Assembly: GCA_046350615.1 (NCBI GenBank)
Contig: JAXMAA010000001.1
Coordinates: 268,263 to 332,262 of the forward strand
Source of the DNA: Candidatus Saccharimonadales bacterium
Lineage (GTDB): Bacteria > Patescibacteriota > Saccharimonadia > Saccharimonadales > UBA7683
Direction of reading: 5' to 3'
DNA: 64,000 bases
Notes under the pieces: generated by a model
Database searches by the model: none
The model's input: only the letters and a program-made list of their open reading frames with translations
Told to the model about the DNA's origin: nothing
Position numbers and translations under genes: made by a program
Part shown: piece by piece, positions 1,903 to 63,177 of the stretch
How the letters are laid out: each line of letters starts with the position of its first letter
How positions within the stretch are numbered: position 1 is the first letter of the stretch

Positions 1903-2127
1903 CTACTGATACGCTTGGGCATGCGTACCGACATCAAGGAATATAATCTGATTCTCGGTTTCCTCATAAACCACGCGGATATCCGAAGTTATCGAAAACG
2001 CAAGCTTGCCGGATAGATTACCGGTAAGCGCATGGTCATTGAGTGGGTAGCCCTTTGCATCCTGAAGAAACAGCCCATACCGTTGGTCGAAAGCGTAAGT
2101 TAACTCTCAAAACCTCCCGTTCGTCAT
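1903..2127 (-). pseudogene. RelE/YoeB-family toxin remnant
   Basis: Reverse frame reads MTNGRF*ELTYAFDQRYGLFLQDAKGYPLNDHALTGNLSGKLAFSITSDIRVVYEETENQIIFLDVGTHAQAYQ*. The C-terminal half matches the YoeB/Txe/RelE pattern (PLxxxLxGxxSxRI...RVVYxxxxxxIxxLxxGxHxxxY). There is an in-frame TGA at codon 7 (rc of 2107-2109). The ATG lies inside hairpin repeat copy 2123-2146. It is directly downstream of a DinJ-like antitoxin gene. Confidence 0.45.
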
Positions 2128-2185
2128 TCCCGCGAACGCAGGAATCCAGTTTAAATACTAGATCCCGGATCAAGTCCGGGATGAC
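2123..2185. repeat. Two tandem hairpin mini-repeats (intergenic copies of family 1)
   Basis: gtcattcccgcgaacgcaggaatc (2123-2146) and gatcccggatcaagtccgggatgac (2161-2185). The second has a perfect 8-bp stem, a TCAAG loop and a GGGATGAC right end. Confidence 0.7.
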
Positions 2186-2222
2186 ACAAGATGAGTTTTG
2201 AGAGTCAGGTACTTCCGACCTC

Positions 2223-2540
2223 TCACGAATAATCTGTTTTGTTATTGCTGCCCCGCAAGCCTTTCATAAACCCTTCAACCGTGTTAAACGGACCTTCTAT
2301 ATCAATGCCGTGCTCAACATCACGTGCAGCTTTTTGAAGCCGTGCCGCTGCTTCTGGTGTTGGCTGGCCCCAAACATCGTCAAAATCAATCTCACGACCA
2401 TCAGCCTTCGCCTTAGCCCACACGCGAATATACGCCTGAATAGAATCAAATCCTAAGTTCTTCACATACGCCTCAAACCGATCACGCACATCCGCCTCAA
2501 TCGGCACCTGAATCTTAACCATATTCGATGTTTTACTCAT
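2223..2540 (-). CDS. DinJ/RelB-family antitoxin (ribbon-helix-helix), paralog 1
   Basis: MSKTSNMVKIQVPIEADVRDRFEAYVKNLGFDSIQAYIRVWAKA follows the same pattern as the two other DinJ-like ORFs in this window (TLSIRTDEKTKAAIKAFADSLGLSVSALV and TLSIKTDPKVKAQAQKLAADLGLPLGSLI). Confidence 0.55.
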   Translation of the reverse strand: MSKTSNMVKIQVPIEADVRDRFEAYVKNLGFDSIQAYIRVWAKAKADGREIDFDDVWGQPTPEAAARLQKAARDVEHGIDIEGPFNTVEGFMKGLRGSNNKTDYS

Positions 2541-2685
2541 ACCAAAAGAGTATCAAAACAGTATAATTATGTCAATATAATGAATCCTAACACATCACAT
2601 TCGTTTCCGCGACACAGCACAGTACACAAGCATTACTATGATAATGATTCATCGACTTACCTCTTATGAAGCGTGGGTTCACGTT

Positions 2686-3498
2686 TCAATCATCTGCTAG
2701 AGGGTTGTCCTCAACTGTTTTCAAAGATGGTTTTCGGACAACACGATACCTCTCAATGCCTTCTCCGCCAAGGACTCCCCAATATAATCTTGAATTACCT
2801 CTAGCTGGGTTAATTAATCCACGTATTACAGGTGCAGTGTCTCCTGTGCTAGAAAGCCGCACGACTCTTTGCACTAAAAGGTTGAATGGACTAACACCGT
2901 ATGCATCTCGAAATTTTTCAATCTTTTCTCGACCGTCTGGAATCCCTTGTATATTGACTATCGAGAGTACCTTTGATTCGCGCTCACGATGCACATTCAA
3001 GCCCAATCGGGCAAGATACTGTCCATGATGATACAGCCTGGCCTGATACAAAGCTTCTGGACAGGGCGTTTCGAATTGCGGCCGATCATGTTGATGGGCA
3101 GCAATTCTGTCTGTAAGAACAAACTGTATATCTATGCCATCATCACACTTTTCGTCGCCGTACATTTCAACAAGATATTCCTGCGCATCTAAGTTGTCCA
3201 ACGCCCTATCAAGCTGCAAGCTGTTCTCAGGGTTAATAGTGGTTACGTGCCCACTACGGAAGCTTGTGTCAGCAGATAAGTACACAGCACCGAACGCATT
3301 CTCGAAGTTTATTGGGCGAAAACCAGTCCGCCTCTTGACTTCTTCATATCTCGCTAAAAATGGCCATCGTGGGTCATCATCTGTAGGCAAAAACCCATAC
3401 AAGCTAAAGGCTGTATCGAGAAGAACGGAAGGCTTCTGCATAAATGGCAGTTCACAGCCGTTTTTAGGTAACGGTAAGGTCCCCAGTACTCTAGACAT
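2686..3498 (-). CDS. Hypothetical protein (270 aa), directly upstream of and co-oriented with the antitoxin-like gene
   Basis: Long ORF with no recognisable motif. The ORF end at 2686 and the next start at 2540 leave a 145-nt AT-rich spacer. Confidence 0.5.
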   Translation of the reverse strand: MSRVLGTLPLPKNGCELPFMQKPSVLLDTAFSLYGFLPTDDDPRWPFLARYEEVKRRTGFRPINFENAFGAVYLSADTSFRSGHVTTINPENSLQLDRALDNLDAQEYLVEMYGDEKCDDGIDIQFVLTDRIAAHQHDRPQFETPCPEALYQARLYHHGQYLARLGLNVHRERESKVLSIVNIQGIPDGREKIEKFRDAYGVSPFNLLVQRVVRLSSTGDTAPVIRGLINPARGNSRLYWGVLGGEGIERYRVVRKPSLKTVEDNPLADD

Positions 3499-3525
3499 TA
3501 ATGCATTATAACATACTTTATGCAG

Positions 3526-4374
3526 TTATGTCAATATTTGGGCATCTTCAATCTGGTGATTGCCGATTCTGGTGCGGCGGAGTTCGGTGCAGTAGGCGCC
3601 GGTTTTGAGGGTTTTGCCGATATCTTCTACCAAGGAACGGATGTAGGTGCCGCTGCTGACGTCGCAGATGCATTTGAGGTAGGGGTATTCGTAGCTTACT
3701 AGTTGTAATCTGCTGATTGTCACCTTTCGGGATGGAATCTCGAAACTCTTGCCCTCTCGGGCCAGTTTATAGGCCCGTTTGCCGTTAATTTTGATCGCAG
3801 AATAGGCCGGTGGGGTTTGGGTAATCTCTCCCGTGAACTGACGAAGTGCTTGTTGCACTTCTTCGGGAGTTGGATTATTGATAAGTGATTTTTGAAGGGA
3901 AGATAACTCGCGTTGCTCAGGACTTTCTACTGGATTCCCGATCAGGTCGGGAATGACAGAGTCGTCAGATCCTCCGTTTTCCATATTCCATATTCCGTAT
4001 TCCAAAATCTCACCTTCCGGATCGCCCGTGCTACTCACCTCACCGAGCTTTGCGGTGAACTCGTAGGTTTTATCTAGTTTTAGGTATGATGAGGCGTCTT
4101 TGCAGGCATCGCCAACTAAGATAATAAGCAGTCCGGTAGCAAATGGGTCAAGCGTGCCGGCATGACCAACTTTAATTTTTTTGGGTTTTTGGGTGGAAGG
4201 TAACTCGCTTCGCTCAGGTTCATTAAACTGGATTCCCGTCTTCACGGGAATGACGGGTCTATTTGCTATTTGCTGGTATCTGTTATCTGTGTTCCGAAGC
4301 AAGCTTCGGATGCGGGCAACCACATCAAAACTCGTCCATCCGGCTGGTTTATCAATCAGTATTACATCTTTCAT
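3526..4374 (-). CDS. truB: tRNA pseudouridine(55) synthase TruB, carrying two in-frame hairpin-repeat insertions
   Basis: ILIDKPAGWTSFDVV and KVGHAGTLDPFATGLLIILVGDA are the TruB motifs. Extra segments ...RPVIPVKTGIQF... and ...DSVIPDLIGNPVES... are encoded by repeat copies at 4230-4254 and 3932-3957. Confidence 0.9.
   Translation of the reverse strand: MKDVILIDKPAGWTSFDVVARIRSLLRNTDNRYQQIANRPVIPVKTGIQFNEPERSELPSTQKPKKIKVGHAGTLDPFATGLLIILVGDACKDASSYLKLDKTYEFTAKLGEVSSTGDPEGEILEYGIWNMENGGSDDSVIPDLIGNPVESPEQRELSSLQKSLINNPTPEEVQQALRQFTGEITQTPPAYSAIKINGKRAYKLAREGKSFEIPSRKVTISRLQLVSYEYPYLKCICDVSSGTYIRSLVEDIGKTLKTGAYCTELRRTRIGNHQIEDAQILT
3932..3957. repeat. Hairpin mini-repeat, in frame within truB
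   Basis: ggattcccgatcaggtcgggaatgac: stem attcccga/tcgggaat, loop tcagg, then GAC. On the coding strand it is translated as VIPDLIGNP. Confidence 0.75.
4230..4254. repeat. Hairpin mini-repeat, in frame within truB
   Basis: ggattcccgtcttcacgggaatgac: stem attcccgt/acgggaat. It is preceded by the shared module cgcttcgctcagg and translated as VIPVKTGIQ. Confidence 0.75.
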
Positions 4375-5257: not shown

Positions 5258-7480
5258 CTAAACTGGTGGCAGCGGAGGCAACCCCGAACCATTCGGATTA
5301 TTGAGTGGTGATTGCCCTTGAAGCTCACGGTTACGATCTACTGCCTGCTCGTAATCAGCAACTTTCGCATCAATTTTTGCCTGGCGATCAACATCGGCCT
5401 GATTCTGCTGCGCAGCAAGATCATCGCCAGCTTGTGTCCACGTGTTTTGAGATTGTGGCATATTCTGCATAAACTCTGGGTTTGTTTGCGGCTGGAACCC
5501 GGTAGCAATATCCGTTATTGGCTGACTGCCCGGAAGGGGTGGCAGTGGCGGAAGACCTTGTTGATCTGCGCTAGCGCCGGGCAGTGGTGGCAATGGCGGC
5601 AACCCTGCCGTCTGATCTTGCGGTGGCAGCGGTGGCGTTATGGGTGGTGCAAACGAGGCTGCGGTGGCTGGCGCTGGACCAAGTGGCGGCGGGCTGAAAT
5701 CGCCCACTGGTGCCGGGGGTAGCATTGGTTCTGGCTGAGATGGTAAAGCTACGTCTGTAATGGTTGGTGCTGGAAAGGCTTCGGGAACAACCGGCTCAGG
5801 ACTCGGCGGTGTAATTGGTGCTACTACCGGAGGTGTTTCTGGGCTAGCCTCGAGAGGAGCCACCTCTGGAAGTGGCGTACTACCGATAGATTCAAGCCGT
5901 TTGTGAGGTGGATCAACAGCCGCATCTTCAACCGCCTTACGTGCCGCCTCAATCGTCTCTTCCGAACCAATGACACCATCATTAGTATGTTCAAGTGTTG
6001 GCGGGGTATTAGATTCAGATTCTAGAGCAGTCGTGCTTGAAGCCGCCTCATCACCTGCTTGTGTTGCATTCAGCGTTCCCCCAAATTGCGGTGGCGTCAG
6101 AGCGTCTCGCGCTGGAGGCGGCGTAATGCTTGGCAAACCATCAGGGGCGGCAGCTTCGGCTACAGGAGGTGCTACTGGCACTGGAATCTCCACGGGTGCC
6201 GGAGGATTTGCAGCTGCCGTATCTTTTACAGTTTCCTCACGCTTTGCTGTGGGTTTTTGAGGCTGGGTTGCTGGCGATTCGGAATTTTTCTGCTTATCGA
6301 GCGCTAGTTTTAAGCTTACATCTGTTTGAGCCGGCTTATTATCTTGGTCTTGCTGCTTAACCTTAGCTGGCTGTTGTTGGTCTTTTGAACTCTGATTTTG
6401 TTGCCCGCCATTATTACCCTGTGCGTTTTTACCAGGTTGGTTATTTTTGGCACCCTTTCTGCTATCCCGGCCATCTTTTTTCGAATCCTTTTGTTCGTTG
6501 TGTTCGAGTACCATCTCGCCACTGTCATCTTGCGGCTGGTCTTTTGGTTTATTCCGAATTGATTCGCTCAACACACCCTCTTGGCGAAGATTACTGGCTA
6601 TCAGCTGCTGATTTGCTCCAGCTGCCATCAACTGGGCTGCGAGCGTCATCACTTTTGGACTGGTTTTTTCGTTCGAGAATCGGCTAGTTTCGGCAACAAT
6701 ACCAGTTAAGAACGCTGTGGCCGATTGAGCATCGAGTAATTGCGCATCAAGTTGGTCTACTAAACTCAGTAGCATCTCGGCAACCGAGCTTGCCTCGCCA
6801 TCATTCCAGTTGATACTGCCAAGATTGCTCTTCTGAACCCCTGCATTGATAGAAACAACCGTTGCATCGTGCAAAATGCGACCATGCGCAGTAATTGCCC
6901 TATCGAGCTCATCCCGGTTGAGCGCGCCGAGCGCCAAGACAACATCAACATTAAAATCACCTTGGCTAAATTGGAGGTCCTTTTGGGTGATAACTGTCTT
7001 ATATGGGGTGATGAAGATTTTCACAACATCATCTTCCACCTTGTAGCGCAGCTTATCTGCTTTTTCTCTATCAAGCGCAATTATGAAATCACGCAGGCTA
7101 TCCACAGTATTCTCAAAGGTTTTTTCTGGATCCAGAAACTCCATTGCAGCTGGAATCTTGCCACTAAATACCGCCGTAGCGTGTTTGCCGATCTTTCCGA
7201 GTATGATAGTCAGCCCGAGTGCTGAAGCAAGCTCATCAACAGATGGGTTACCGCCCACCGTAACAAGCATGTTTTTTCCGTTATTAATTGCTGTGACTAT
7301 TTGTGAAACCAGACCTTCAACCGGTTCGGCCGATGCGGGTTGCGGCTGTTCCTCTGGTTGCGATTGCTGTGGCACCTCGGGTACTAGCGGCTCAGCCGGC
7401 AATGCCGGAAGATTTGGTAGTGGCGGTGCTTGCGGCTGCGTACTATCGGGAACTTGTGAAACAGGCGTTTGTGGATCCAT
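5258..7480 (-). CDS. Degenerate DHH-family (NrnA-like) domain protein with a long proline-rich C-terminal region
   Basis: N-terminal domain LVTVGGNPSVDELASALGLTIIL...VDVVLALGALNRDELD...DGEASSVAEMLLSLV...FLTGIVAETSRF is collinear with NrnA/DHH motifs (HxxPDGDAxGS, DxxN, DHH, DTSASSxSEM, GIxGDTGRF). The catalytic residues are replaced (NPSVDE, no DHH). The C-terminal ~400 aa are Pro/Gln/Ala-rich with LPPLPPLPG repeats. The preferred start is ATG 7480 (MDPQTPV); the upstream 27 codons are read-through of the intergenic region. Confidence 0.6.
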   Translation of the reverse strand: MDPQTPVSQVPDSTQPQAPPLPNLPALPAEPLVPEVPQQSQPEEQPQPASAEPVEGLVSQIVTAINNGKNMLVTVGGNPSVDELASALGLTIILGKIGKHATAVFSGKIPAAMEFLDPEKTFENTVDSLRDFIIALDREKADKLRYKVEDDVVKIFITPYKTVITQKDLQFSQGDFNVDVVLALGALNRDELDRAITAHGRILHDATVVSINAGVQKSNLGSINWNDGEASSVAEMLLSLVDQLDAQLLDAQSATAFLTGIVAETSRFSNEKTSPKVMTLAAQLMAAGANQQLIASNLRQEGVLSESIRNKPKDQPQDDSGEMVLEHNEQKDSKKDGRDSRKGAKNNQPGKNAQGNNGGQQNQSSKDQQQPAKVKQQDQDNKPAQTDVSLKLALDKQKNSESPATQPQKPTAKREETVKDTAAANPPAPVEIPVPVAPPVAEAAAPDGLPSITPPPARDALTPPQFGGTLNATQAGDEAASSTTALESESNTPPTLEHTNDGVIGSEETIEAARKAVEDAAVDPPHKRLESIGSTPLPEVAPLEASPETPPVVAPITPPSPEPVVPEAFPAPTITDVALPSQPEPMLPPAPVGDFSPPPLGPAPATAASFAPPITPPLPPQDQTAGLPPLPPLPGASADQQGLPPLPPLPGSQPITDIATGFQPQTNPEFMQNMPQSQNTWTQAGDDLAAQQNQADVDRQAKIDAKVADYEQAVDRNRELQGQSPLNNPNGSGLPPLPPV

Positions 7481-7579
7481 TTTCTTACCTATTTTTATTT
7501 TAGCTTTTATACATAAACAGTATCGGATTTTAACAGTGATGTCAAGAGAGAAATACTTCAATCACGAATTACCGACCTT

Positions 7580-7605
7580 GTCATCCTGAGCGAAGCCGAA
7601 GGATC
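7580..7605. repeat. Hairpin mini-repeat (AGGATGAC subtype, reverse orientation)
   Basis: gtcatcctgagcgaagccgaaggatc is near-identical to 63152-63177 and to the reverse complement of 42924-42949. Confidence 0.7.
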
Positions 7606-7866: not shown

Positions 7867-8268
7867 ATGCCAATTATCAAATCTGCAAAAAAGCGCATGA
7901 AGCAAACTGCTGTTCGACGTGCTCGCAATCAAACAACGAAACGAAGCCTACGAAGTGAAGTAAAAATACTCGCAGCAGCAATTGAGGCCAAGGATGGCAA
8001 AAAAGCCGCAGAAGCATTGAAGAAAGTTCAGAGCAATCTCGATAAAACAGTCAAGAAGAACATCTTAAAAAAGAACACCGCAGCCCGAAAGCTCGCCCGC
8101 CTTTCAGAACAAGTAAAAGCCCTCGGCGCCAAGCCAGCTACAACTACCAAAGCCAAAGCAGCCCCAAAAGCGACAAAACCAACAGAGAAGAAAGCCCCGG
8201 CAAAGAAACCCGCAGCCAAAAAACCAGCTGCTAGAGCTACGGTAAAAAAAGCTTCAACTAAAAAATAA
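7867..8268 (+). CDS. rpsT: 30S ribosomal protein S20 with a Lys/Ala-rich C-terminal extension
   Basis: MPIIKSAKKRMKQTAVRRARNQTTKRSLRSEVK is the S20 N-terminus (compare MANIKSAKKRAIQSEKAR...). The 133-aa length includes a KKPAAKKPAARATVKK histone-H1-like tail. Confidence 0.85.
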   Translation: MPIIKSAKKRMKQTAVRRARNQTTKRSLRSEVKILAAAIEAKDGKKAAEALKKVQSNLDKTVKKNILKKNTAARKLARLSEQVKALGAKPATTTKAKAAPKATKPTEKKAPAKKPAAKKPAARATVKKASTKK

Positions 8269-10686: not shown

Positions 10687-11522
10687 CGGAGTAGCCCCTT
10701 CTTGAGATCAACAACTACCATTGAGCCATCAGTGAAGAACGCATCGCCGCCGCCATTGCGATGTGAATATTTTGGGAAAAACCCTTCTATCTTCTGTACT
10801 TGCTTGGTTCGATGCACCCGCTTAATTGTTTGCACCACAAAATCACGTTCGGCGTCGACATCGCCATCAATGCTATGCGTAATTTGGAGTGTAAATCTTG
10901 AAAGTCCCACGGCATCATCGTAAGTTGCTGCTGCCACCCAGTCAACGTTGTGACCACCGGGCAGATAAATATCTTTCGGAATTCGCCAAAAACGCACATG
11001 ATGACGCTTTGCAGGGTTACCATCTACTTCTTTTTGAAACGCCAGATCTTGCTTTTTGCCAAATACGTACAGATCGCTCACTGGAGCGTTCTCGTAACTA
11101 CGCTTGAGTAGCGTTGCACGTATGGTAGTAAGCGCTGTTTTTATCGTTATTGGATCGGCCAGATCCCAACCTGCTTTACGCATGGTTTTGAGGAGTGTTT
11201 TTTCGGTACCCCGCAGTGCAAGGTTAACAGGATCCGCAAGCAAACCATCAGCTGTTCGCGCGCGCCCGATAAAGTAATCTGGCACATAAATACGACTTAA
11301 AAAACGATGGATACGTGGCAGCAAAATATATGAGGTAACCACCCAGAGCAACAATAAACTGATGAGCACATGCTTATCTGTACGAAGATTATTGATGGCA
11401 ATATAATAAGCCGCAACAACAAAAAGCAAACCACCGAGTAGAATGCCGACTCGTTTAAGCGGTACCACCAGCCGCCATGATTGTCGCATGTACCGCCCTA
11501 CATTCCTGATGAACTTCTGCAC
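10683..11522 (-). CDS. LssY C-terminal-domain-like membrane protein
   Basis: N-terminal transmembrane helices, then a conserved GxxxDPVNLAL..GWxxADPIT pattern typical of the LssY_C family. Confidence 0.45.
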   Translation of the reverse strand: MQKFIRNVGRYMRQSWRLVVPLKRVGILLGGLLFVVAAYYIAINNLRTDKHVLISLLLLWVVTSYILLPRIHRFLSRIYVPDYFIGRARTADGLLADPVNLALRGTEKTLLKTMRKAGWDLADPITIKTALTTIRATLLKRSYENAPVSDLYVFGKKQDLAFQKEVDGNPAKRHHVRFWRIPKDIYLPGGHNVDWVAAATYDDAVGLSRFTLQITHSIDGDVDAERDFVVQTIKRVHRTKQVQKIEGFFPKYSHRNGGGDAFFTDGSMVVVDLKKGLLR

Positions 11523-11554: not shown

Positions 11555-14233
11555 TTATCTGGTTTCAGAAAATGATACACGATTTTGAGAGAACGTAGCG
11601 ATAATCTTTTGGCCGTCTTTTACTTTGCCCTCGATAATTTCAAGTGCGAGCGGGTCTAACAGATCAGTTTGGATGAGACGCTTGAGTGGACGAGCGCCGT
11701 AATTTGGGTCGTAGCCAACTTCGGCCAGGTGTTTTTTGACGCTTTCATCAATGGTGAGCGTAATATTTTTACTCGTTTTGAGGTGTTTGATTACTCGCTC
11801 AAGCTGAACGCCTACAATGTTGTTCATTAATGCTTCACTGAGCCGCTCGAATACCACAATGTCATCAATACGATTAAGAAATTCTGGACGGAAGTGCGCG
11901 CGCAAACGATCGTTGAGGGCAATCTCAAGTGCTTCGTCAGTCAGCCCAATAGGGCTGTCATCCTCGGACTTGATCCGAGGATCCAGTTTATTTTGTATGC
12001 CCTTGGCATTCTTTGTTTGACTGGATTCCAAATCAAGTTTGGAATGACGGGAAGGAAAGTTGGTGTTCAAAATTAAATCGGAGCCAAGATTGCTGGTCAT
12101 GATAATCACCGTGTTGGTGAAGTTGACGGTTCTCCCTTGCCCATCAGTCAAACGCCCATCATCTAAAATCTGCAGTAGTGCATTAAAGACATCTGGATGT
12201 GCTTTTTCAACCTCATCAAACAACACTACAGCATATGGGCGGCGGCGCACAGCCTCGGTCAGCTGTCCGCCCTGCTCGTAACCAACGTAGCCCGGAGGCG
12301 AGCCAATCAGGCGAGCCACGGCGTGCTGCTCCATGTATTCGCTCATGTCAATGCGCACCATGGCATCTTCATCATCAAATAACTGTTCGGCTAGAGCTTT
12401 GGCAGTTTCGGTTTTACCCACACCGGTTGGACCCAAGAATAAGAACGAGCCGATTGGCCGACCCTCATCGGAAATACCGGCGCGTGAACGGCGAATGGCA
12501 TTGGCCACTGCGGTGATAGCCCGATCTTGCCCAATCACCCGCTTTTCCAACTCCTTTTCAAGATGCACCAGCTTCTCAGATTCGCTCTCTAATAAGCGCG
12601 AAACCGGAATGCCGGTCCAGCGTGCTACCACTCTAGCAATATCTTCGCTCGTCACCTCCTCTTTCAAAAGGCGCTTGTCGCCATCAAGCTTTGCAAGCTC
12701 ACTCTTAGCTTTGGCAATGGCTTTCTCGGCTTCCGGAATTTTGCCGTACTGTAATTCACCAGCTTTTGCGAGATCGTTCTCGCGCTGGGCAGCCTCAAGC
12801 TCCGATTTGTACTGATCGAGATTCTCACTAGCTTGGTTTAAATTATCAATCAGTTCTTTTTCACGCAGCCACTGCGTTTCCAGCCCGCTCGAAGATTCCT
12901 TTAAATCTGCGATCTGCTGCTCAAGCTCTTTTTTGCGCGCCTTAGCACTCTCGGACTTATCTTTTTTGAGCGTGGTAAGCTCAATCTCGAGCTGCATTTG
13001 CTTGCGTTTTGCTCTATCAAGCTCGGTTGGCATGCTTTCTATCTCAATTTTGAGTGCCGAGGTGGCTTCATCTATTAAATCCACCGCTTTGTCGGGCAAG
13101 AATCTATCAGCAATGTAGCGGTCACTCAGCCGCGCCGCCGCAATTAACGCATCGTCAGTAATCTTCACGCCGTGGTGAATTTCGTACTTTTCTTGCAAAC
13201 CCCTGAGAATGGCGATTGAATCTTCTACGCTCGGCTCATTCACATACACCGGCTGAAAACGCCGCTCTAAGGCTGCGTCTTTTTCAACGTACTGCCGGTA
13301 TTCATCGAGCGTTGTTGCTCCAATTAGGTGCATTTTGCCGCGCGCGAGTGAAGGCTTAATCATATTACCGGCGTCAACCGAACCCTCTGATTTTCCCGCG
13401 CCAACAATGGTGTGCAGCTCATCAACAAACAAAATAATTTCGCCATCAGATTTTTCTACCTCGTCAATCACCGCCTTAAAACGCTCTTCAAATTCGCCTC
13501 GATATTTTGCGCCAGCCAGAAGACTGCCGATACTCAGCTCAATCAGCTTCTTATTTTTTAGACTACTCGGCACGTCGCCATTCACAATGCGCTGCGCCAA
13601 ACCTTCAGCAATAGCTGTTTTACCCACGCCTGGCTCGCCAATCAGCACCGGATTATTTTTAGTACGGCGAGAAAGTACCTGCATCACGCGCCGAATTTCT
13701 TCATCACGGCCAATAACCGGATCTAACTTGCCACTCCGAGCCAGCTCGGTGAAATCCTGCCCATATTTTTCCAGCACATTTTGCTTATTTTCAGGAGATT
13801 GATCCATAACCTTCCGCCCTCCTCGCACACTTTCAATATTATTTTTAAGCTCATTGTAATCTACGTTAATCAACTTTTGTTCCGCCGCCGCCAAAAGCAC
13901 ATGCTCAGTACTCACGTGCGTGTCGCCGAGATTCTTCGCCTCTTTTTCGGCCCGCTCAATCAGCTTAATGAATTCTCTGTTTGGTCTGATATCAACACTC
14001 GAGACCTCCGCACTACTCTTAGCTACAGCATCGAGACCGTTATTCACAATCCGCACCACCTCATCGCGCACATTCGCCCGATCAATCAAAATCGTAAACG
14101 TCGTATCCGCTTGCTCAAGTAGTGCCTTTAGTAAGTGCCACTGAGAAAACTCCAGATTTTGATGCTCACGAGCCAACTCCACCGCTCGCTGCAGCGCCTC
14201 AATCATCTTATGAGTCAATGAATCCGTATTCAT
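11555..14233 (-). CDS. clpB: ATP-dependent chaperone ClpB, with two in-frame hairpin-repeat insertions near the C-terminus
   Basis: Two AAA+ modules ([10 protein letters not shown] and GPTGVGKTE), a coiled-coil middle domain and a Clp N-domain. The extra segment ...[42 protein letters not shown]... lies between MTSNLGS and [10 protein letters not shown]. Confidence 0.95.
11957..11983. repeat. Hairpin mini-repeat, in frame within clpB
   Basis: gtcatcctcggacttgatccgaggatc (reverse orientation): stem atcctcgga/tccgaggat, loop TCAAG. Translated as DPRIKSEDD. Confidence 0.75.
12023..12048. repeat. Hairpin mini-repeat, in frame within clpB
   Basis: ggattccaaatcaagtttggaatgac: stem attccaaa/tttggaat, loop TCAAG. 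Translated as HSKLDLESS. Confidence 0.75.
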
Positions 14234-18606: not shown

Positions 18607-19101
18607 TCACGCATAGATACCACTTAGCTCATTGCGAACACGCATCAATATAAGGCCAAGATGATTCTCGCCGTCAGTACTACCTATTGGGTCTACACCC
18701 CAGAACCGATCACCCCAATCATTACCTTCAACTAGCTCTTCGACACCGGTCTGAGCAAGTAATAATGCGATGTCGTGATTGGCTGCGAATTTCCGCTTCA
18801 CCGCCTCGTACATTAAATCAAGCTTTGCGTTTGGCCAGTCTGGGAGCTGCTCTTCACCGGAATCTACGAGCTTTCGTGCGAAACTTTTAACTGCCTTTCC
18901 ATTCGCATACCAAGAGGCATCGCTCGGCTCGGCACGAATCTCAGCGACTTCACGTTGGACATCAGGATCAACAAATCGGCCCGACATATACACATGCTCA
19001 GAAGTAGGAACTTGAATACCGCAAAGTGCCAAGATTGGTACCTTCAGTGGGTACATATTACTGAGGTAAAAATGCTCACCCCGAAAACGTTCGATTGTCA
19101 T
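18607..19101 (-). CDS. NADAR (YbiA-like) domain protein
   Basis: N-terminal FRGEHFYLSNMYP matches the DUF1768/NADAR signature (FxGxYxFLSNF). Confidence 0.65.
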   Translation of the reverse strand: MTIERFRGEHFYLSNMYPLKVPILALCGIQVPTSEHVYMSGRFVDPDVQREVAEIRAEPSDASWYANGKAVKSFARKLVDSGEEQLPDWPNAKLDLMYEAVKRKFAANHDIALLLAQTGVEELVEGNDWGDRFWGVDPIGSTDGENHLGLILMRVRNELSGIYA

Positions 19102-42904: not shown

Positions 42905-42923
42905 GTGTAAAAAACTTAAGCTA

Positions 42924-43633: not shown

Positions 43634-43655
43634 CTTCCCTCCTTTATAAAGCTGC

Positions 43656-45383
43656 CTACATTTTTTCAGGTGTACCAATGCCAAGCAACTTCAGGCCTTC
43701 TTCAAGCGTCTTTGCATAATAAGCCACGAGCCTTAGACGAATAGGCTCTCGGTCATCACCTATCACTTTACTGCCCTCGTAAAAACGGTTGAACTCCTGA
43801 GCCAGCTCGTATAAATAGGTACAGATATGATGGGACATGAGCTCGTTTGTAGCTCGTTCAATAACCTCTTCGTATTCTCCCAACTTTCTAACCAAGGTAC
43901 GCTCGGCTGGCTCGAGGCTTCCCGTCGCGCCATCTTGAGCGTATTGAGATATCTTGCCAGATCCTTCAACTTCACTGGCGTTTCGTTCAGGATGACCCGC
44001 TACGCTGGCTTTGTTAAGAATTGAGCCTGCTCTTGCAAGCGCATATTGAAGATATGGTCCGCTGTTACCCTGCAGACTTACTGACTCTTTTGGATCGTAT
44101 ATGATGTCGCCGCCCATACGCTGCCTCAGAAAGGCATACTTTACGGCCCCAAGACTTACATCTTCCCTACCTTCTCCTGCGTTTGCCTCGGCATTAGCTC
44201 GATTAGCAACATCAAGCACATCTACTGCGCGAAGAAAGTTTCCTTTACGGCTACTCATTTTAACACCGCCGGCCAACTTTACTTGCCCATGTGTCAGATG
44301 CGTGGTTCGAGAGGTGGCTTCTGGCAAGAAAGCTTCAAGGCTTTTCATGACAACTTTCATGTATTCAATAATGTCGTTGCCAGTAATGATGACGCTCTTA
44401 TCAAACTGGTAATCTTGCCATTTTTTCAGCGCTAAGCCGACATCTTTAGCCTCATATGTTGGAAGCCCATTGGCATTAATAAACACACGTGTATGTAGCC
44501 CATATGGCTCACCTTTAAAAACAACTGCACCGTTAGACTCTTCGTATACATTCCCTGTGTGTTCTTTTACTGTTTGCAAACCAATTGGTGCTGTTTGGCT
44601 TTCTGGATAGTACTTTTCAAAGGTAGTGCCTATTCGTGCGTAAAATGCATCGAAGTACGCATAGCTCCATTCACGGCACATCCAGTAAATTTGTGCGAGA
44701 GGTGTAGTTTTATCTTGCTGCGTATGAAAATTGTAGATTTGCTTGTTGATAGCAGTGATGGCATCTTTAGCCGACCCACCATCTTCATAGGCCGTATTTC
44801 CTGCCTGATAACACTGTGCCATCCAGTCAGCTCGCTCGGTCTGGGCAATCTCGGCAAGCTGCTCGGGCTTCTCTCCGCCTAACGCTTGCTTTATCCCCCA
44901 AAGCGCTTTGGCAACATGCAGTCCAACGTCGCCACCAAAGTTAACCCGGTGTACCGTAGCGCCCGCATTTTCAAGAAGGTTCGCAATGGCATCTCCCATG
45001 ACAGATGTATATAAGTGACCTGCGTGAAGTACCTTAAACGGATTCGGATCTGAATACTCCGCCACGATTATCTGGCCAGCAAGTGGCTTTGCGGCAGTTT
45101 TGTCGAGCATTGCCAACAAAGTGTTATCGGTAAGTGTAATATTAATAAAACCAGGGCCAGCCACCTCTACCTTCTCTACCAGTTCGCTTTTGATATTTTC
45201 AGCAATCTGCTTCGCGATCTCGCGTGGATTTTGGCCAAGTTTTTTACCAAGACGTAAGGCTATGTTAGTTGCAAAATCACCAAATTGCTCATCAGTACGA
45301 GTAAGCTCAACTGTCTCCTCAACACCAAACAAATCAGTAACTACCTTTTCTACTAACTCAGAAATCTCATACATTAAACTCAT
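43656..45383 (-). CDS. argS: Arginine--tRNA ligase
   Basis: N-terminal Arg-tRNA-synthetase add-on domain, HAGHLYTSVMGD (HIGH-like), the catalytic core, KMSSRKGN (KMSK) and a DALR anticodon-binding region. Confidence 0.95.
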   Translation of the reverse strand: MSLMYEISELVEKVVTDLFGVEETVELTRTDEQFGDFATNIALRLGKKLGQNPREIAKQIAENIKSELVEKVEVAGPGFINITLTDNTLLAMLDKTAAKPLAGQIIVAEYSDPNPFKVLHAGHLYTSVMGDAIANLLENAGATVHRVNFGGDVGLHVAKALWGIKQALGGEKPEQLAEIAQTERADWMAQCYQAGNTAYEDGGSAKDAITAINKQIYNFHTQQDKTTPLAQIYWMCREWSYAYFDAFYARIGTTFEKYYPESQTAPIGLQTVKEHTGNVYEESNGAVVFKGEPYGLHTRVFINANGLPTYEAKDVGLALKKWQDYQFDKSVIITGNDIIEYMKVVMKSLEAFLPEATSRTTHLTHGQVKLAGGVKMSSRKGNFLRAVDVLDVANRANAEANAGEGREDVSLGAVKYAFLRQRMGGDIIYDPKESVSLQGNSGPYLQYALARAGSILNKASVAGHPERNASEVEGSGKISQYAQDGATGSLEPAERTLVRKLGEYEEVIERATNELMSHHICTYLYELAQEFNRFYEGSKVIGDDREPIRLRLVAYYAKTLEEGLKLLGIGTPEKM

Positions 45384-55899: not shown

Positions 55900-56754
55900 A
55901 TGAATGTTATTGAACTCACCGAAATCAGCCGCGTTTTTGGACTGGGGAATGGCGCCACTCGAGCGCTCAAAGGGGTGAATTTGAGCGTGCCAAAGGGTGA
56001 GTTTTTGGTAATCATGGGGCCAAGCGGATCTGGTAAAAGCACGCTGCTCAATATTATTGGCCTGCTTGATCAGCCGGATGACGGCGAATACAAGCTCGAC
56101 GGCCGCGATGTAGCCTTTTTAAGCCAACGCCGCCGCGCCAAAATTCGCCGCAATCATATTGGCTTTATTTTTCAGAACTTCAACCTGATCGGCCGGATGA
56201 ATATTTTAGAGAACGTCAGCCTGCCGCTCCTCTACAAAGGCATCGCTACCATCAAACGATATGAACGCGCCAGTGAAATTTTGAGATATCTTGGCATTCA
56301 AGAAAAAGAGTATTACCTGCCAAACCAGCTTTCTGGCGGCCAGCTGCAACGCGCAGCCATCGCCCGTGCCATGGTTAATCGCCCAAGTATTGTGCTAGCT
56401 GATGAGCCAACTGGCAATCTCGACACCAAGGCTACGAAAATTATCATGGCAGCCCTAAGAGAGATTCACGAAGCCGGCAACACTATCGTCATGGTCACGC
56501 ATAATCCAGATCTTGCCGCGTATGGTGATCGTGTTATAAAAATGCTCGATGGCCGCATTACCGAAGAGCTAACGGGTAGCTCAATCACTAAGGACTTACA
56601 GGAGCAGAAGAAAGAGGCGGAAGAGATTGTGAAAGCCGCAACTAGCCTGGCAGTCAGAAAGCCAAGAAGGAAGAAGGCTGCACACAGTAAGCAGATAAGG
56701 GATAAGAAGAAAGCCAAGAAGACAGGTTCGCGCAGAAAAGGGGCCAAGAAATGA
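55900..56754 (+). CDS. ABC transporter ATP-binding protein (MacB/LolD-like) with a Lys-rich C-terminal tail
   Basis: [12 protein letters not shown] Walker [15 protein letters not shown] signature, ADEPTGNLD Walker B and H-loop TIVMVTHN. Confidence 0.9.
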
Positions 56755-57965
56755 TCAAACAACACGCTCGAATGGCCGTTAATTCTCTTCGCAGTAATAA
56801 AGTTCGCACCTTTTTGACTTTACTCGGTATTATCATTGGTGTCACCTCAGTTACCACCGTAATTGGGCTTGGCGAGGGTGTCAAACGGCAAGTGAACCAA
56901 CAGATTAATGATCTTGGAAGCGACTTGATTACTATTGTACCTGGCCGAAATGCAACCATTAGTGGCTTTGATTCGCTCAGCGGCATACTCGGAAGTAATA
57001 CTTCGAGCGCGCGTCTCAGTGAAGCCGACCTTACTAGCGTCTCAAAACTACAGAACATTGATGCCGCCGGTGGTGTTATGCAGCTTGATAGCTCAATCGC
57101 CAGGGGTGAGAAGAAGCGTAACATTAAAGTCCTGGCTGTTGGTGAGGACTACCTTGAACTTACCCGCCAGAAGCTCACTAGCGGCCAATTTTTTGGGGGT
57201 AATTTAGAAAACAATAACACTGTTATTCTTGCCAGTAATGTGGCTCAAGAACTTTTTGGCAGCGACGACCCTATCGGCAGCAGCGTGACCATCCGCGGTA
57301 CTAACTTTGTCATCATTGGCGTGCTTGATGCCTCCAAGGGCTTCAATCTTGGCAGACCAATCAACGACCTAGTCTTGATCCCCCTCCCTACTGGCAAAAT
57401 GCTCAATCAAGATACCGCTCAGCTGCAACAGATCACCGTTAAAGTAAAAGATATCAATCAAAGCAAAGCCACTGCAGAAGCAATTAACGATGCTCTTCTG
57501 AAAAATCACAGCGGCGAAGAGGATTTCACCGTTACCACCCAAGATCAGTTGGTTAATACCACCGATTACGTGTTTCGGGTTCTCACCGGCTTTACTGCCG
57601 CCGTGGCCTCTATTTCACTGCTCGTGGGCGGGATTGGCGTCATGAACATTATGCTGGTAACTGTTACAGAGCGAACCCGTGAGATCGGCGTTCGGAAAGC
57701 TGTTGGCGCAACCAAGCTTCAGATTATGATGCAATTCCTGGTTGAAGCGCTCGCTATCACGCTTGCAGGCGGCCTAATTGGTATTTTAACGAGCTTGCTT
57801 GCTGGTTACATCATTCGCACCCAAACCGCCGTCAAACCCGCCATGGATCTCTGGATCATCCTTCTCGCCACCGGCGTATCTTTAATGGTCGGTATCATCT
57901 TCGGCACCTGGCCCGCCATTCGTGCCGCCCGCAAAGACCCCATCGAAGCCCTCCGCCACGATTAA
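56751..57965 (+). CDS. ABC transporter permease (FtsX/MacB-type)
   Basis: N-terminal transmembrane helix, a large extracytoplasmic MacB-like domain and a C-terminal FtsX four-helix bundle. It overlaps the ATPase stop by 4 nt, suggesting an operon. Confidence 0.9.
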   Translation: MIKQHARMAVNSLRSNKVRTFLTLLGIIIGVTSVTTVIGLGEGVKRQVNQQINDLGSDLITIVPGRNATISGFDSLSGILGSNTSSARLSEADLTSVSKLQNIDAAGGVMQLDSSIARGEKKRNIKVLAVGEDYLELTRQKLTSGQFFGGNLENNNTVILASNVAQELFGSDDPIGSSVTIRGTNFVIIGVLDASKGFNLGRPINDLVLIPLPTGKMLNQDTAQLQQITVKVKDINQSKATAEAINDALLKNHSGEEDFTVTTQDQLVNTTDYVFRVLTGFTAAVASISLLVGGIGVMNIMLVTVTERTREIGVRKAVGATKLQIMMQFLVEALAITLAGGLIGILTSLLAGYIIRTQTAVKPAMDLWIILLATGVSLMVGIIFGTWPAIRAARKDPIEALRHD

Positions 57966-58034
57966 CCTTCCGTCACTCCTGCGCAGGTGGGAATGCAGGG
58001 GGAGGATATTCAGGAACAGGCCCAGAATGACGGC

Positions 58035-58466
58035 TTAGGTTCGTTCTTTTACTCGTTGCTCCGGGGTTTCGTTTGGACGCGAGTAATCATCTTCAAGGCG
58101 CCAGGTAGTACCCTTTTCTGGGGTAGATACTTCAATAATATCGCAATTCGTTATGCCAACTAGTCGGTGTTTTTGGCCAAGCTTGGTACTGTAACCAACC
58201 TGTTTTTCAAGCTTGGTCTCTACCATCTGCCCTAATTCGTTCTCCCAAATAACCGATGCCTCACCTGAGGCAAGGAACCAGCTCTCCACTTTTTCGTCAT
58301 GCACCTGCAGTGAGAGCCGTGCACCTGCATTGATATGGATCAACTTGCCCATATATGGTGCGTCTTCTGGAACCCAATGTAACTCATAGCCCCACGGCTT
58401 TTCAATGCGTCGAATATACGAGCTTGTGGTGAAATCTTTAGGATCAAAAGTCGGCATTGTTTGCAT
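58035..58466 (-). CDS. Cupin-domain protein (type II mannose-6-phosphate-isomerase-like)
   Basis: KPWGYELHW...LHINAGARLSLQVHDEKVESWFLASGEA is the cupin motif pair G(X)5HXH...G(X)5PXG(X)2H. Confidence 0.75.
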   Translation of the reverse strand: MQTMPTFDPKDFTTSSYIRRIEKPWGYELHWVPEDAPYMGKLIHINAGARLSLQVHDEKVESWFLASGEASVIWENELGQMVETKLEKQVGYSTKLGQKHRLVGITNCDIIEVSTPEKGTTWRLEDDYSRPNETPEQRVKERT

Positions 58467-60218: not shown

Positions 60219-60812
60219 CTAGACATTCTTGATGTCACCGCCAGGCCCGTCAGCCCTAGGATCATGCTCCGGCGGAAAGTCGATGTGAGCAAGATATATA
60301 TCCCTCAACGCCTCTATAAGGGTCTCGTAATAGTCATCACCGGTACCTTCAGGTAGCATCTGACGGAGTACATTAAGGTGATGATCAAACTCGCCCAATC
60401 GCTGCACGAGCTGCTCAATCGTATCCTCGGGATTCGTCACCTCATCGGTTAAATCTAAATGCCCAACAGCTTCCCCCAGGAAGTGCTTGAGCCAATCTTG
60501 ACCGTCTAGGAGTTTGTGAAACTCAATCGCGTCGTTATGCGTAATTGGCGCAGCAGCGTTCTCACCTTGCCACCTCTCTCTTATCTCATCCATCTCGGCT
60601 GCTCTATCATCCCATCGTTTATGTAGAACACCTGAGGCGATCAATAACTGGACGATCCGTGGCTCCGCATCTCTGAGTACGATCGTGTTGCACTTTGTGC
60701 AGGTAAAACGATAGAAGCTTTTATCATCCGATTCTTTAGTAATAACCTTCATATCGTTATCGGTGACTTCTATATCACCGCAATCCGGGCAACTACAAAG
60801 TATTGTAGACAT
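60219..60812 (-). CDS. Hypothetical protein with an N-terminal zinc-ribbon (CxxC...CxxC)
   Basis: CSCPDCGDIEV...CTKCNTIV. Confidence 0.5.
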   Translation of the reverse strand: MSTILCSCPDCGDIEVTDNDMKVITKESDDKSFYRFTCTKCNTIVLRDAEPRIVQLLIASGVLHKRWDDRAAEMDEIRERWQGENAAAPITHNDAIEFHKLLDGQDWLKHFLGEAVGHLDLTDEVTNPEDTIEQLVQRLGEFDHHLNVLRQMLPEGTGDDYYETLIEALRDIYLAHIDFPPEHDPRADGPGGDIKNV

Positions 60813-61122
60813 AAGACTTGACCTTTGAAGTACTGATCATAACACTGATTATACTTTATATTGGTTACTATGTAAATCATATGATATTCTATAATTTATA
60901 CACCTGTCGTCTGTTTTGCCCATGGGCCGCCAAAGCCAGTACTAAAAATTCGACTGCGATGAAGGTTTAAGATCCTATATTTCACGTGCTTGACCACTTA
61001 CCGTTGCCAATGTAAAACGGCAAGAAGCTCCGGTTTCCCAGAGCTTCTTAAGATGTGTACTGAATCCCAGCCGGAGTTTATGCTCAACTTGATTGAGTAC
61101 GGGAATGACGGATAGGAGTACC

Positions 61123-62769
61123 CTACATCCCCATCATTGATGGGTCCATGCCGCCGCCAGATGGAGCTGCGGGAGCTTTTTCTGGGATATCTACCACTAG
61201 TGCACCCATAGTCATAGCCGTGCCAGCAATTGACGCGGCGTTTAAAATCGCCTCTTTGGTTACACGGGCAGGATCCACCACGCCCGCCTTCTTCATATCT
61301 TGTAAGCCCGCATCTGGGTCGTTCACATTAATACCTTGACCAGCTTTACCAGCCTGCACCTGTGCAAGGAGCGCCTGAGCATTCAGACCAGCGTTCGTCA
61401 TGAGTTGTACAAACGGCTGCACCAAAGCATTCTTTAGGAGTACCGCTCCTGCTGAAGTTGAATCAGTGGCATCGTCAGTAATTGTCCCTGCAAGATTGAC
61501 CAGTGTTACACCACCGCCAGATACCACACCTTCGTCTAGGGCTGCTTTAACGGCTGCTACGGCATCGTCTACACGGAACTTCTTCTCTTCAATTTCAGTT
61601 TCAGTCGCACCACCAACCTTAATCACTGCAACTTTACCCTCTAAGGCTGCTCTGCGCTTCTCGAGGTTCTCTTTTTCGTACTCACTTGAGGCATTGCCAG
61701 CCTGAGCACTAATTTGCTCTACACGAGCTGCTACGGCCTTTGCAGAGCCTGCTCCTTCAATAATGGTGGAGTTATCTTTATCAACAATAATACGGCGAGC
61801 AGTACCAAGCATACTGATATCGGCATTCTCAAAGGTGTGGCCTTGATCTTCAGTAATCACCTGCCCACCTGTCAAAATTGCGATGTCTTCTAAAATCTCT
61901 TTACGCCGATCACCAAAAGCCGGAGCCTTAATGGCCAAGGTGTTAAACACTCCCTTCAATCTATTGAGAATCAAGGTGCCGAGTGCTTCGCCCTCGACAT
62001 CTTCGGCGATAATTACCAGATCTTTTTTACCTGTTTGCGCAACTTTTTCTAAAATTGGCAGAAATTCTTGAACTGAACTAATTTTTTTGTCGGTAATCAG
62101 TACCAACGGCTTATCGTACACCGCCTCCATACGAGCGGTATCAGTTACCATGTAGGGGCTCACAAAGCCACGGTCAAACGTAAAGCCCTCTACTACCTCT
62201 GATTCCATTACCAGGCCCTGGCCCTCTTCAACGGTAACAACACCGTCTTTGCCAACTTTTTCAATCACATCAGCGATTAGTGCGCCAATTGCCGCATCAC
62301 CAGCTGAAATGGTTGCTACTTCAGCTACTCGCTTTTTATCACCAGCGATATCTTCGCGCATGGTTCTCAGCTTCGCAATCACTCCTTCAGCAGCTTTTTC
62401 CAGACCTTTACGCAGCTGCATCGGGTTGTGGCCGGCAGCAATCAGCTTGTTTGCCTCATTCAAGATGTGGTATGTCAATACTGTAACAGTGGTAGTACCA
62501 TCACCCGCTACATCGTTCATCTTGCTGGCCGCTTGCTTAATCAGTTCAGCTCCAACTTTGTAGCCCAAAGTCTCGTCGTCTTCTGGCAACTCAATACCCT
62601 TGGCAACCGTTACGCCGTCGTGAGTAACAGTTGGGCTGCCGAAACTCTTAGAAATCACCACATTTCGGCCTTTTGGCCCCATAGTAGTTTTCACGGCGTT
62701 AAATAAAATCTCTGCCCCAGCCAGTAGGCGGCGGCGCGCGTCTTCATCGTAAAATACTTTTTTTGCCAT
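61123..62769 (-). CDS. groL: Chaperonin GroEL
   Basis: MAKKVFYDEDARRRLLAGAEILFNAVKTTMGPKGRNVV...GDGTTTVTVL...AVKAALDEGVVSGGGV and a C-terminal GGM repeat. Confidence 0.98.
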   Translation of the reverse strand: MAKKVFYDEDARRRLLAGAEILFNAVKTTMGPKGRNVVISKSFGSPTVTHDGVTVAKGIELPEDDETLGYKVGAELIKQAASKMNDVAGDGTTTVTVLTYHILNEANKLIAAGHNPMQLRKGLEKAAEGVIAKLRTMREDIAGDKKRVAEVATISAGDAAIGALIADVIEKVGKDGVVTVEEGQGLVMESEVVEGFTFDRGFVSPYMVTDTARMEAVYDKPLVLITDKKISSVQEFLPILEKVAQTGKKDLVIIAEDVEGEALGTLILNRLKGVFNTLAIKAPAFGDRRKEILEDIAILTGGQVITEDQGHTFENADISMLGTARRIIVDKDNSTIIEGAGSAKAVAARVEQISAQAGNASSEYEKENLEKRRAALEGKVAVIKVGGATETEIEEKKFRVDDAVAAVKAALDEGVVSGGGVTLVNLAGTITDDATDSTSAGAVLLKNALVQPFVQLMTNAGLNAQALLAQVQAGKAGQGINVNDPDAGLQDMKKAGVVDPARVTKEAILNAASIAGTAMTMGALVVDIPEKAPAAPSGGGMDPSMMGM

Positions 62770-62825
62770 ATACTTACTCCTTTTCTTGATATCATTTCTG
62801 CAAAAGCAGAAATCATTATGTAACT

Positions 62826-62851
62826 GGATCCCGTATCAGGTACGGGATGAC
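62826..62851. repeat. Hairpin mini-repeat in the groES-groEL spacer
   Basis: ggatcccgtatcaggtacgggatgac: stem atcccgta/tacgggat, loop TCAGG, then GAC. Confidence 0.7.
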
Positions 62852-62859
62852 GAGTCCCG

Positions 62860-63126
62860 CTACGCGAGCGTTGCCAAAATGTCTTCTTCTTTAATGATTA
62901 GATATTCGACACCATCAACCTTGACTTCAGTAGTTGAATACTCCTTGTAGACAATTCGGTCGTTAGTCTTCACAGTTTTCACATCGCTACCGGTTGCTAC
63001 AACTTTGGCAACTTTAGATTTTTCTTTGGCGCTATCTGGCAGATATAAGCCCGATGCAGTTTGGCTCTTTGCCTCTTCAACTTGGGCAACAACTCGGTCA
63101 GCCAGTGGTTTTAGCGGTACACTCAT
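62860..63126 (-). CDS. groS: Co-chaperonin GroES
   Basis: MSVPLKPLADRVVAQVEEAKSQTASGLYLPDSAKEKSKVAKVVATG, including the GroES mobile-loop region. Confidence 0.95.
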   Translation of the reverse strand: MSVPLKPLADRVVAQVEEAKSQTASGLYLPDSAKEKSKVAKVVATGSDVKTVKTNDRIVYKEYSTTEVKVDGVEYLIIKEEDILATLA

Positions 63127-63151
63127 GCACTTCCTCCTCTTTTACGTTGAT

Positions 63152-63177
63152 GTCATCCTGGGCGAAGTCGAAGGATC
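63152..63177. repeat. Hairpin mini-repeat (AGGATGAC subtype) in the groES leader
   Basis: gtcatcctgggcgaagtcgaaggatc matches the 7580-7605 copy at 24 of 26 positions. Confidence 0.7.

Follow-up and report, generated by a model that had tools for sequence, protein, structure and literature searches.

Hairpin repeats resembling CGTC-tagged REPs and the Neisseria NTS, between and within genes of a Candidatus Saccharibacteria bacterium

A stretch of 64,000 nucleotides of contig JAXMAA010000001.1 (positions 268,263 to 332,262, hereafter the window), from a Candidatus Saccharibacteria (TM7) bacterium, contains a family of short hairpins with conserved ends that are dispersed between genes and inside housekeeping genes. 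To which class of element do these hairpins belong, and by what means could they have spread? A preliminary description had read them as a mobile element resembling repetitive extragenic palindromes (REPs) or miniature inverted-repeat transposable elements (MITEs), or else as a structural motif under selection, and had found no described element with such ends. Described elements with these ends do exist: judged by their anatomy, the repeats are CGTC-tagged REPs (Di Nocera, De Gregorio and Rocco 2013, PMC3733652), of the dRS3/NTS type that also comprises the 'Ssn-related motifs' (SRM) targeted by Ssn nucleases (Chenal et al. 2025, PMC11893778). The element is thus not new, and what is new is its host phylum. 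The best explanation for the repeats, and one that we hold to be probable, is that they are short non-coding DNA elements of the CGTC-tagged REP/NTS type, which would be recognised as single-stranded DNA hairpins by an Ssn-type nuclease and spread by it or by recombination that it provokes.

The search space was the 64-kb window, and loci from other genomes were labelled L001–L036. The strict motif of the preliminary description matched three times against none expected. A pattern fixing only the ends of the unit, GTCATYCYN{8,16}RGRATYY, gave 13 matches against 0.08 expected in 64 kb, which places the hairpins far above chance as a multi-copy family and disposes, within the window, of the concern that copies might occur at chance level. 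Since this pattern does not impose pairing of the inner stem, the stem covariation described below is not an artefact of selection. A covariance model, R1, was built from 12 aligned Saccharibacterial units, 11 of them from the window and one from the relative L011. It scored 11 units of the window, hereafter type 1, strongly (36–45 bits), and gave only weak scores to the three copies of a second subtype, at 7580 (+), 42924 (−) and 63152 (+), whose sequence was matched three times against none expected, and to a decayed dimer at 57971–58032. In all, the window holds 13 repeat loci, six of them within genes and in frame and seven elsewhere. Every position reported earlier was found to carry sequence of the form described. 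The former count of at least 13 copies reflects a real hairpin family, but clean type-1 units number 11, and the copies at 61050–61110 and 57971–58032 are decayed. Unit coordinates gave no sign of a 27-nt periodicity (no formal periodicity test was made).

The 12 aligned units share a common anatomy. The GTC of the tag is invariant, preceded by C in seven units and by T in five. Every one of the 12 stems opens with the pairs A-T and T-A; eight pairs are modelled, and one unit has a stem of 9 bp. Loops are of 5 nt in nine units (CTTGA, CCTGA or CTTGT) and of 4 nt in three (GAAC, GAAG or CAGG). The tail always begins with C; it reads CCA(G) in six of the 12 and CTA, CTC or CCG in the others, the forms of the general anatomy being CCAG, CTAG or CTCG. 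What never changes among the units is GTC, two stem positions at each end and the C that directly follows the stem; the inner stem varies. In the alignment, 97.8% of the stem cells were paired and five of the eight pairs were altered on both sides. Covariation as high as this arose in none of 500 shuffles, and pairing fell to 9–57% when the 3′ partner was shifted by 1–3 columns. The compensatory variation reported previously, which keeps structure rather than sequence, therefore holds on alignment. What is under selection is a single-strand hairpin, with compensatory stem changes and an invariant tag and post-stem C.

Most units are arranged in pairs, the flanks reading GTCATCC-hairpin-GGATCCAG, a short spacer and CTGGATYCC-hairpin-GGRATGAC. 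Eight of the 11 strong units belong to four head-to-head dimers of 65–94 nt with their tags outward, three of which are heterodimers; one further dimer is decayed. As single-stranded DNA, single units and, above all, dimers folded much better than shuffled sequences, with z-scores of −6.2 to −9.6 for three of the dimers. The second subtype is conserved in sequence yet does not fold alone (z about 0), and folds only as an intact dimer in the relative L002.

Assignment to the CGTC REPs follows from the agreement of tag, stem, loop, tail and head-to-head dimers with the published definition. As defined in PMC3733652, these REPs, divided into families CGTC-1 to CGTC-4, have an unpaired CGTC or TGTC tag, a stem of 8–9 bp starting with A-T and T-A, a loop of 4–5 nt and a CCA tail. 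Head-to-head dimers predominate, many of them heterodimers, and the spacer between their units measures at most 100 bp. Copies are found near the stop codons of convergent genes and, when intragenic, encode 20–30 amino acids. All these traits recur in the window. Differences lie in the hosts, the published ones being Proteobacteria, Chlorobi, Bacteroidetes, Spirochaetes and Thermotogae, with Patescibacteria or the Candidate Phyla Radiation (CPR) not listed; in the intragenic share, which at six of 13 loci is very high in the window; and in the second unit type of the window, GTCATCCTGAGCGAAGYCGAAGGATC, which keeps the tag and outer stem without folding alone. A literature search found no report of REPs in Saccharibacteria, and the host phylum appears in neither PMC3733652 nor PMC11893778.

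GTAG-type REPs and bacterial interspersed mosaic elements (BIMEs) share with the window repeats the architecture of a tagged hairpin, the head-to-head dimers, occasional intragenic copies, a presumed single-strand DNA substrate and domestication scenarios. If the repeats were of this type, they would be mobilised by RAYT, an IS200/IS605-like tyrosine transposase. However, all 12 units carry (C/T)GTC as their tag and none carries GTAG, which excludes RAYT-type REPs, and no RAYT or IS200-like open reading frame (ORF), nor any association with one, was seen among the window ORFs scanned. Mobilisation by a RAYT is accordingly improbable in the extreme.

The link to Neisseria was reached by a text search for GTCATTCCCGCG, which led to the work of Chenal et al. 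CGTC-1 corresponds to the Neisseria dRS3 repeat (PMC3733652). The NTS of Neisseria, CGTCATTCCCGCGMAVGCGGGAATCYRG, contains dRS3, and SsnA, a GIY-YIG nuclease of 94 amino acids, binds and cuts both NTS and the degenerate SRM, but only when they are single-stranded (PMC11893778). Compared with the 28-nt NTS consensus, the window unit at 2122–2149 shows one mismatch and that at 4228–4255 shows two, the latter being an exact dRS3 (ATTCCC-N8-GGGAAT). The published SRM expression, HGTCWYN(0-2)YYVSBRHN(0-5)WNVSBRGN(0-2)RNCYNB, matched five units (0.19 expected); the remaining six strong units do not fit it but score 36–45 bits by the model. For binding by SsnA, the C that directly follows the palindrome matters most, and for cleavage, the three nucleotides that precede it (PMC11893778). 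These critical flanks are invariant in 12 of 12 window units, while the inner stem varies. In contrast to the NTS of Neisseria, the window repeats have much more varied stems, include copies within genes and form no large intergenic mosaic clusters.

As an independent test, R1 was run on the 1.5-kb flanks of six GIY-YIG genes annotated in records of plasmids and chromosomes. Matches of 27–37 bits were found directly beside the GIY-YIG genes of N. gonorrhoeae, Azospirillum lipoferum, where dimers lie on both sides, and Rhizobium sp. CIAT894. Matches beside the Planktothrix gene were weaker, and the flanks of the Novosphingobium and Spirosoma genes gave none. These matches indicate that the window repeat is of the same family as the repeats flanking GIY-YIG (presumed ssn) genes elsewhere.

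From this family membership we infer that an Ssn-type nuclease would recognise the units in this organism as well. The units would act as single-stranded DNA hairpins, and a small GIY-YIG nuclease of the Ssn type, presumably encoded elsewhere in the genome, would bind the stem together with the 3′ C and make its cut a few nucleotides 5′ of the tag, an activity demonstrated for the Ssn of Neisseria and Wolbachia. Cassettes would then be spread by the nuclease itself or by recombination that it provokes. Since about 90% of the window is coding, mostly on the minus strand, many insertions would land in genes. Those surviving would be the ones that keep the frame and fall in a tolerant loop, yielding 'decorations' of 22–37 amino acids of the kind seen with the Rickettsia palindromic elements (RPEs). 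Effects on mRNA, for instance in the groES leader and the groES-groEL spacer, would be secondary, and an effect on the groESL transcript is possible.

Several points weigh against this explanation. No ssn or GIY-YIG gene was found in the window by a motif regular expression, by tblastn with three queries (the generic one being 60% identical to the gonococcal GIY-YIG gene, presumed SsnA) or by a hidden Markov model of six GIY-YIG (presumed Ssn-family) proteins from plasmid records, run on all six-frame ORFs. Among the Saccharibacteria loci examined, the sole GIY-YIG match was a partial gene in L008. The 97-aa GIY-YIG protein of these bacteria is 21–32% identical to the six presumed Ssn-family proteins and lacks their shared C-terminal KKW.R.WK..LIE motif. 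Moreover, Neisseria SsnA becomes inactive once the stem sequence is changed, even when pairing is kept (PMC11893778), so that with stems as different as those of the window a single enzyme would need a looser specificity. Finally, the second subtype neither folds alone nor matches the SRM expression.

The 97-aa GIY-YIG gene of L008 was considered as evidence for an Ssn enzyme and rejected: it has no flanking repeats, and the L008 locus is without repeat matches. This single-domain gene, the only small GIY-YIG gene seen in Saccharibacteria, is conserved immediately upstream of dnaG-rpoD, which it overlaps, in Saccharibacteria/Patescibacteria (L030–L036; for example L030 3001–3294). No repeats flank it in L030–L036.

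Six of the 13 loci are intragenic, with two in truB, one in clpB, two in polA and a probable one in argS, and all are in frame. Inserts in polA and clpB were called by comparison with the relative L010, and those in truB and argS by comparison with solved structures. In polA (19098–21899, −), site 1 is occupied by a head-to-head near-homodimer at 20615–20685 (39.3 and 36.0 bits; −24.5 kcal/mol, z −9.6), with arms of roughly 25 bp, which encodes RHPELVSESTNDSKRILKQVQDD. Site 2, just before the QIHDS motif, holds a heterodimer at 19268–19337 (39.6 and 38.3 bits; −21.8 kcal/mol, z −6.2) that encodes RHSRLDRGSRANTNEIPSQAEDD. The heterodimer of clpB (11555–14233, −) lies at 11956–12049 (38.2 and 45.1 bits; −20.4 kcal/mol, z −6.2) and is composed of units 11956–11986 (+), with a 9-bp stem, and 12021–12049 (−), with an 8-bp stem, separated by a 34-nt spacer. 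It forms part of an in-frame insertion of 37 amino acids that follows the TSNLGS motif of the second AAA domain.

Both inserts of truB are on the minus strand. Insert A (3885–3958) consists of a type-1 unit, 3930–3958 (−), of 44.3 bits, followed on the coding strand by a decayed module resembling the second subtype, GTCCTGAGCAACGCGAGTTATCTTCC, and encodes ..SVIPDLIGNPVESPEQRELSSLQK.. in frame. Insert B (4182–4255) combines a type-1 unit of 36.9 bits, 4228–4255 (−), CGTCATTCCCGTGAAGACGGGAATCCAG, with the module CCTGAGCGAAGCGAGTTACCTTCC, and encodes ..PVIPVKTGIQFNEPERSELPSTQK.. in frame. The corresponding TruB residues, 126–167 for insert A and 27–67 for insert B, have no counterpart in the solved TruB 1sgv. 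The assignment in argS (43656–45383, −) is tentative: a probable diverged unit resembling the second subtype, at 43950–43997 (−), has an 11-nt internal expansion, encodes GHPERNASEVEGSGK in frame and is not detected by the covariance model; relative to the solved ArgRS 6ao8, an insertion of roughly 19 amino acids is present at this site. The preliminary description was correct in locating copies in truB, clpB and polA and went too far in calling all three genes essential, since truB and clpB are housekeeping genes and not strictly essential ones.

The palindromic inserts found here keep the frame of genes that are otherwise whole and are missing from orthologues, which is the pattern of the RPE-4/RPE-6 type. 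In Rickettsia conorii, CGTC-1 corresponds to RPE-6 and CGTC-4 to RPE-4, and truB is likewise interrupted by an RPE; intragenic CGTC or GTAG REPs are also known in the DNA polymerase I, tRNA synthetase and truB genes of other species (PMC3733652). The equivalence to RPE-4 and RPE-6 is taken as stated there. The two cases are alike in that palindromic elements have entered housekeeping genes without loss of frame, in a host-dependent bacterium with a reduced genome. They differ in host phylum, and RPE-1, of 100–150 bp, is a separate family.

Comparison with relatives addressed the mobility of the elements. PolA relatives in the genome collection were all metagenome-assembled genomes of Candidatus Saccharibacteria or Saccharimonadales. 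The closest, L010, has PolA and ClpB proteins 92% identical to those of the window and is syntenic with positions 7158–34639 (27 kb) at 75–93% nucleotide identity. The alignment breaks exactly at the cassettes: both polA inserts and the clpB insert are missing from L010, which has none of the seven units found in this interval of the window. By the covariance model, L010 and ten further Saccharibacteria loci were without a unit, and about 200 kb of such loci were repeat-free. The site-2 dimer of polA is absent from L010, L003, L004, L008, L009 and L011, and the site-1 dimer from L010 and the other relatives. Units do occur in relatives L002 and L011, and the groESL copies of the window are shared with a 96%-identical strain, L001, known from a 3-kb groEL contig. 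This patchy occurrence, with the absence from polA and clpB of L010 and from the 27-kb syntenic region, points to a recent spread. The repeat family is patchy among close relatives and was recently gained in the lineage of the window, including in-frame gains in polA and clpB. Together, the stem covariation and the absence of the inserts from L010 back the earlier reading of a REP/MITE-like mobile hairpin.

At PolA site 2, L002 carries a different dimer, of the second subtype (L002 6635–6696). Near PolA site 1, at about 11180–11290, L011 has a 20-aa insert that contains a hairpin and ends in GGGGTGAC. Differing inserts in the same two PolA loops across lineages suggest recurrent insertion or cassette replacement at tolerant sites.

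Presence or absence between close relatives, inverted ends and short spacers are also features of classical MITEs, and one of the cassettes is a near-perfect palindrome. In such a case, the cassettes of 65–94 nt would have arisen by deletion from an insertion sequence, and a DDE transposase acting in trans would recognise their terminal inverted repeats and move them. However, neither a target-site duplication nor a common target motif is visible at the three sites for which an empty allele is available, two in polA and one in clpB, and a Pfam scan of roughly 45 window ORFs revealed no transposase. Furthermore, each end of a cassette is a hairpin of its own with a stem unlike that of its partner, so that the cassettes are heterodimers and not true inverted repeats, and singletons are common. 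The unit is that of the established CGTC REPs, for which no dedicated transposase has been found (PMC3733652). An origin as MITEs is therefore very unlikely.

The occupation of the same PolA loops by different cassettes, at site 2 in the window and L002 and at site 1 in the window and possibly L011, also bears on a further possibility, namely that the repeats represent a recent, lineage-specific burst that is still active and targeted. Its partner would be a non-canonical Ssn, either the dnaG-linked 97-aa GIY-YIG enzyme or an enzyme from outside the genome, and insertion or cassette replacement would be steered by a local feature or would proceed via recombination during natural transformation. 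We consider this scenario unlikely. If true, it would provide a first handle on the movement of CGTC REPs and extend NTS/Ssn-like control of DNA uptake to the CPR.

A scan of metagenome contigs with the conserved dimer spacer yielded no nuclease; it retrieved a single contig, of the L002 lineage. A head-to-head dimer resembling the second subtype was noted in an intergenic region of a Bacteroidota plasmid, that of Hymenobacter volaticus (NZ_CP095062.1; L022 3000–3099), with no adjacent nuclease, and the GTCATCCTGAGCGAAGCCGAAGG-type unit is therefore not confined to Saccharibacteria. Matches to the second subtype on Lactobacillus plasmids were rejected as chance matches within a relB gene.

The seven loci other than the in-frame inserts are the site of a toxin gene 5′ half, the region upstream of rpsT, two gaps between convergent genes, the region after the groEL stop codon, the groES-groEL spacer and the groES leader. 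Those in the groES leader, the groES-groEL spacer and the toxin remnant had been placed correctly in the preliminary description. The groES-groEL spacer, of 90 nt, contains a type-1 singleton at 62824–62852 (−; 43.9 bits; −7.3 kcal/mol, z −3.4) in sense orientation, 8 nt after the groES stop codon, which is kept in L001. In the groES leader, a dimer of the second subtype at 63151–63207 (+; 17.5 bits) begins 25 nt upstream of the groES ATG (63126); its right arm is decayed and it no longer folds, and it aligns over its full length with the polA dimer of L002. A decayed or rearranged unit at 61050–61110 (−), CGTCATTCCCGTA...GGGATTCAG, with an internal CTCAA-TCAAG-TTGAG hairpin, follows groEL, its start lying about 12 nt beyond the stop codon. 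Its assignment is tentative, it has no significant fold, and the equivalent place in L001 shows a weak match.

Between convergent genes, a singleton of the second subtype at 42923–42950 (−; 19.1 bits) separates genes 40883–42841 (+) and 42998–43684 (−), and a tentative, decayed head-to-head dimer at 57971–58032 (20.4 bits, E 0.006) takes up the 69 nt that separate the stop codons of genes 56751–57965 (+) and 58035–58466 (−). The region upstream of rpsT contains a singleton of the second subtype, TGTCATCCTGAGCGAAGCCGAAGGATC, at 7579–7605 (+), which scores weakly (14.9 bits), does not fold alone and lies in the divergent spacer between a Pro-rich ORF (5258–7561, −) and rpsT (7867–8268, +). This region does not align with L010, and L021 and L002 have a head-to-head dimer with a large loop in the same spacer. 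The Pro-rich ORF itself encodes 767 amino acids with long Pro/Gln/Ala-rich low-complexity stretches and belongs to no Pfam family.

The remaining locus is a head-to-head heterodimer with outward tags at 2122–2186 (36.0 and 45.3 bits; −11.2 kcal/mol as DNA, z −2.7). Its left unit, 2122–2149 (+), CGTCATTCCCGCGAACGCAGGAATCCAG, has a 4-nt loop and its right unit, 2158–2186 (−), a 5-nt loop, and they are joined by the spacer CCAGTTTAAATACTAGATCC, which is identical in an intergenic dimer of L002 (14341–14462). Downstream of the antitoxin-like orf105 (2223–2540, −), the dimer stands where a YafQ-family toxin gene would be expected to have its 5′ half. The segment 1896–2540 (−) is a degraded toxin-antitoxin pair, in which orf105 has no Pfam match and the toxin remnant represents only the C-terminal half of a YafQ-family toxin (YafQ_toxin profile 43–85 of 88).

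This distribution bears on whether the hairpins are primarily RNA elements, selected as transcript stabilisers, attenuators, processing sites or terminators, with their spread being incidental. Six of seven singletons are sense-oriented and lie in or beside transcripts, and copies occur in the groES leader and just past stop codons (groES, groEL and the convergent pair at 57971–58032), a distribution also noted for REPs (PMC3733652). On the other hand, six of the 13 loci fall within coding sequence, and each dimer has units facing both ways. In the groESL region, the part scanned for terminators (60800–63400), not one of the three elements qualified, and Rfam matched none of the repeats, its hits in the window being two tRNAs only. 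What is invariant, moreover, is the unpaired tag and the 3′ C, which is relevant to a DNA-binding nuclease and not to hairpin stability. A dedicated RNA motif or terminator, as envisaged in the preliminary description, is thus quite unlikely as the primary explanation.

In the singletons 3930–3958, 4228–4255, 42923–42950, 61050–61110 and 62824–62852 and in the 43950–43997 unit, the GTCAT strand is mostly the minus strand, which is the coding strand of the genes concerned. Judging from a steadily negative GC skew, the minus strand is probably leading-strand sequence, that is, the lagging-strand template. The units are too few, and the bias too confounded with gene orientation, for any conclusion.

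The assignment to CGTC-tagged REPs reveals no new kind of element; it adds an ultra-small bacterium of the CPR that depends on a host to the known carriers of the family, which are Proteobacteria and members of a few other phyla. This agrees with the published remark that symbionts are enriched in such motifs. The contrast between a repeat-rich and a repeat-free relative with 92% identical proteins provides clean filled and empty sites in polA and clpB, which are useful for studying the insertion mechanism. With regard to annotation, the repeats account for odd insertions of 20–40 amino acids in housekeeping proteins of Saccharibacteria (RHPELV..., VIP...GIQ, ...QDD) and for spurious small ORFs.

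Two other regions of the window stand apart from the repeats. The 3.8-kb segment 21877–25700, which contains a sigma-70-like gene (21936–22790) and a P-type cation ATPase gene (22776–25607), is missing from L010, which is otherwise syntenic and has about 65 nt only at that place. Positions 38300–40550 form an island of 62% GC, compared with 46% in the rest of the window, where long antisense ORFs result from the GC bias. Its ORF 38367–39332 (+) has coiled-coil and membrane-like segments, and ORF 39369–40529 (+) is Pro/Thr-rich with 24-nt tandem repeats at 40115–40261; neither belongs to a Pfam family. The island looks horizontally acquired.

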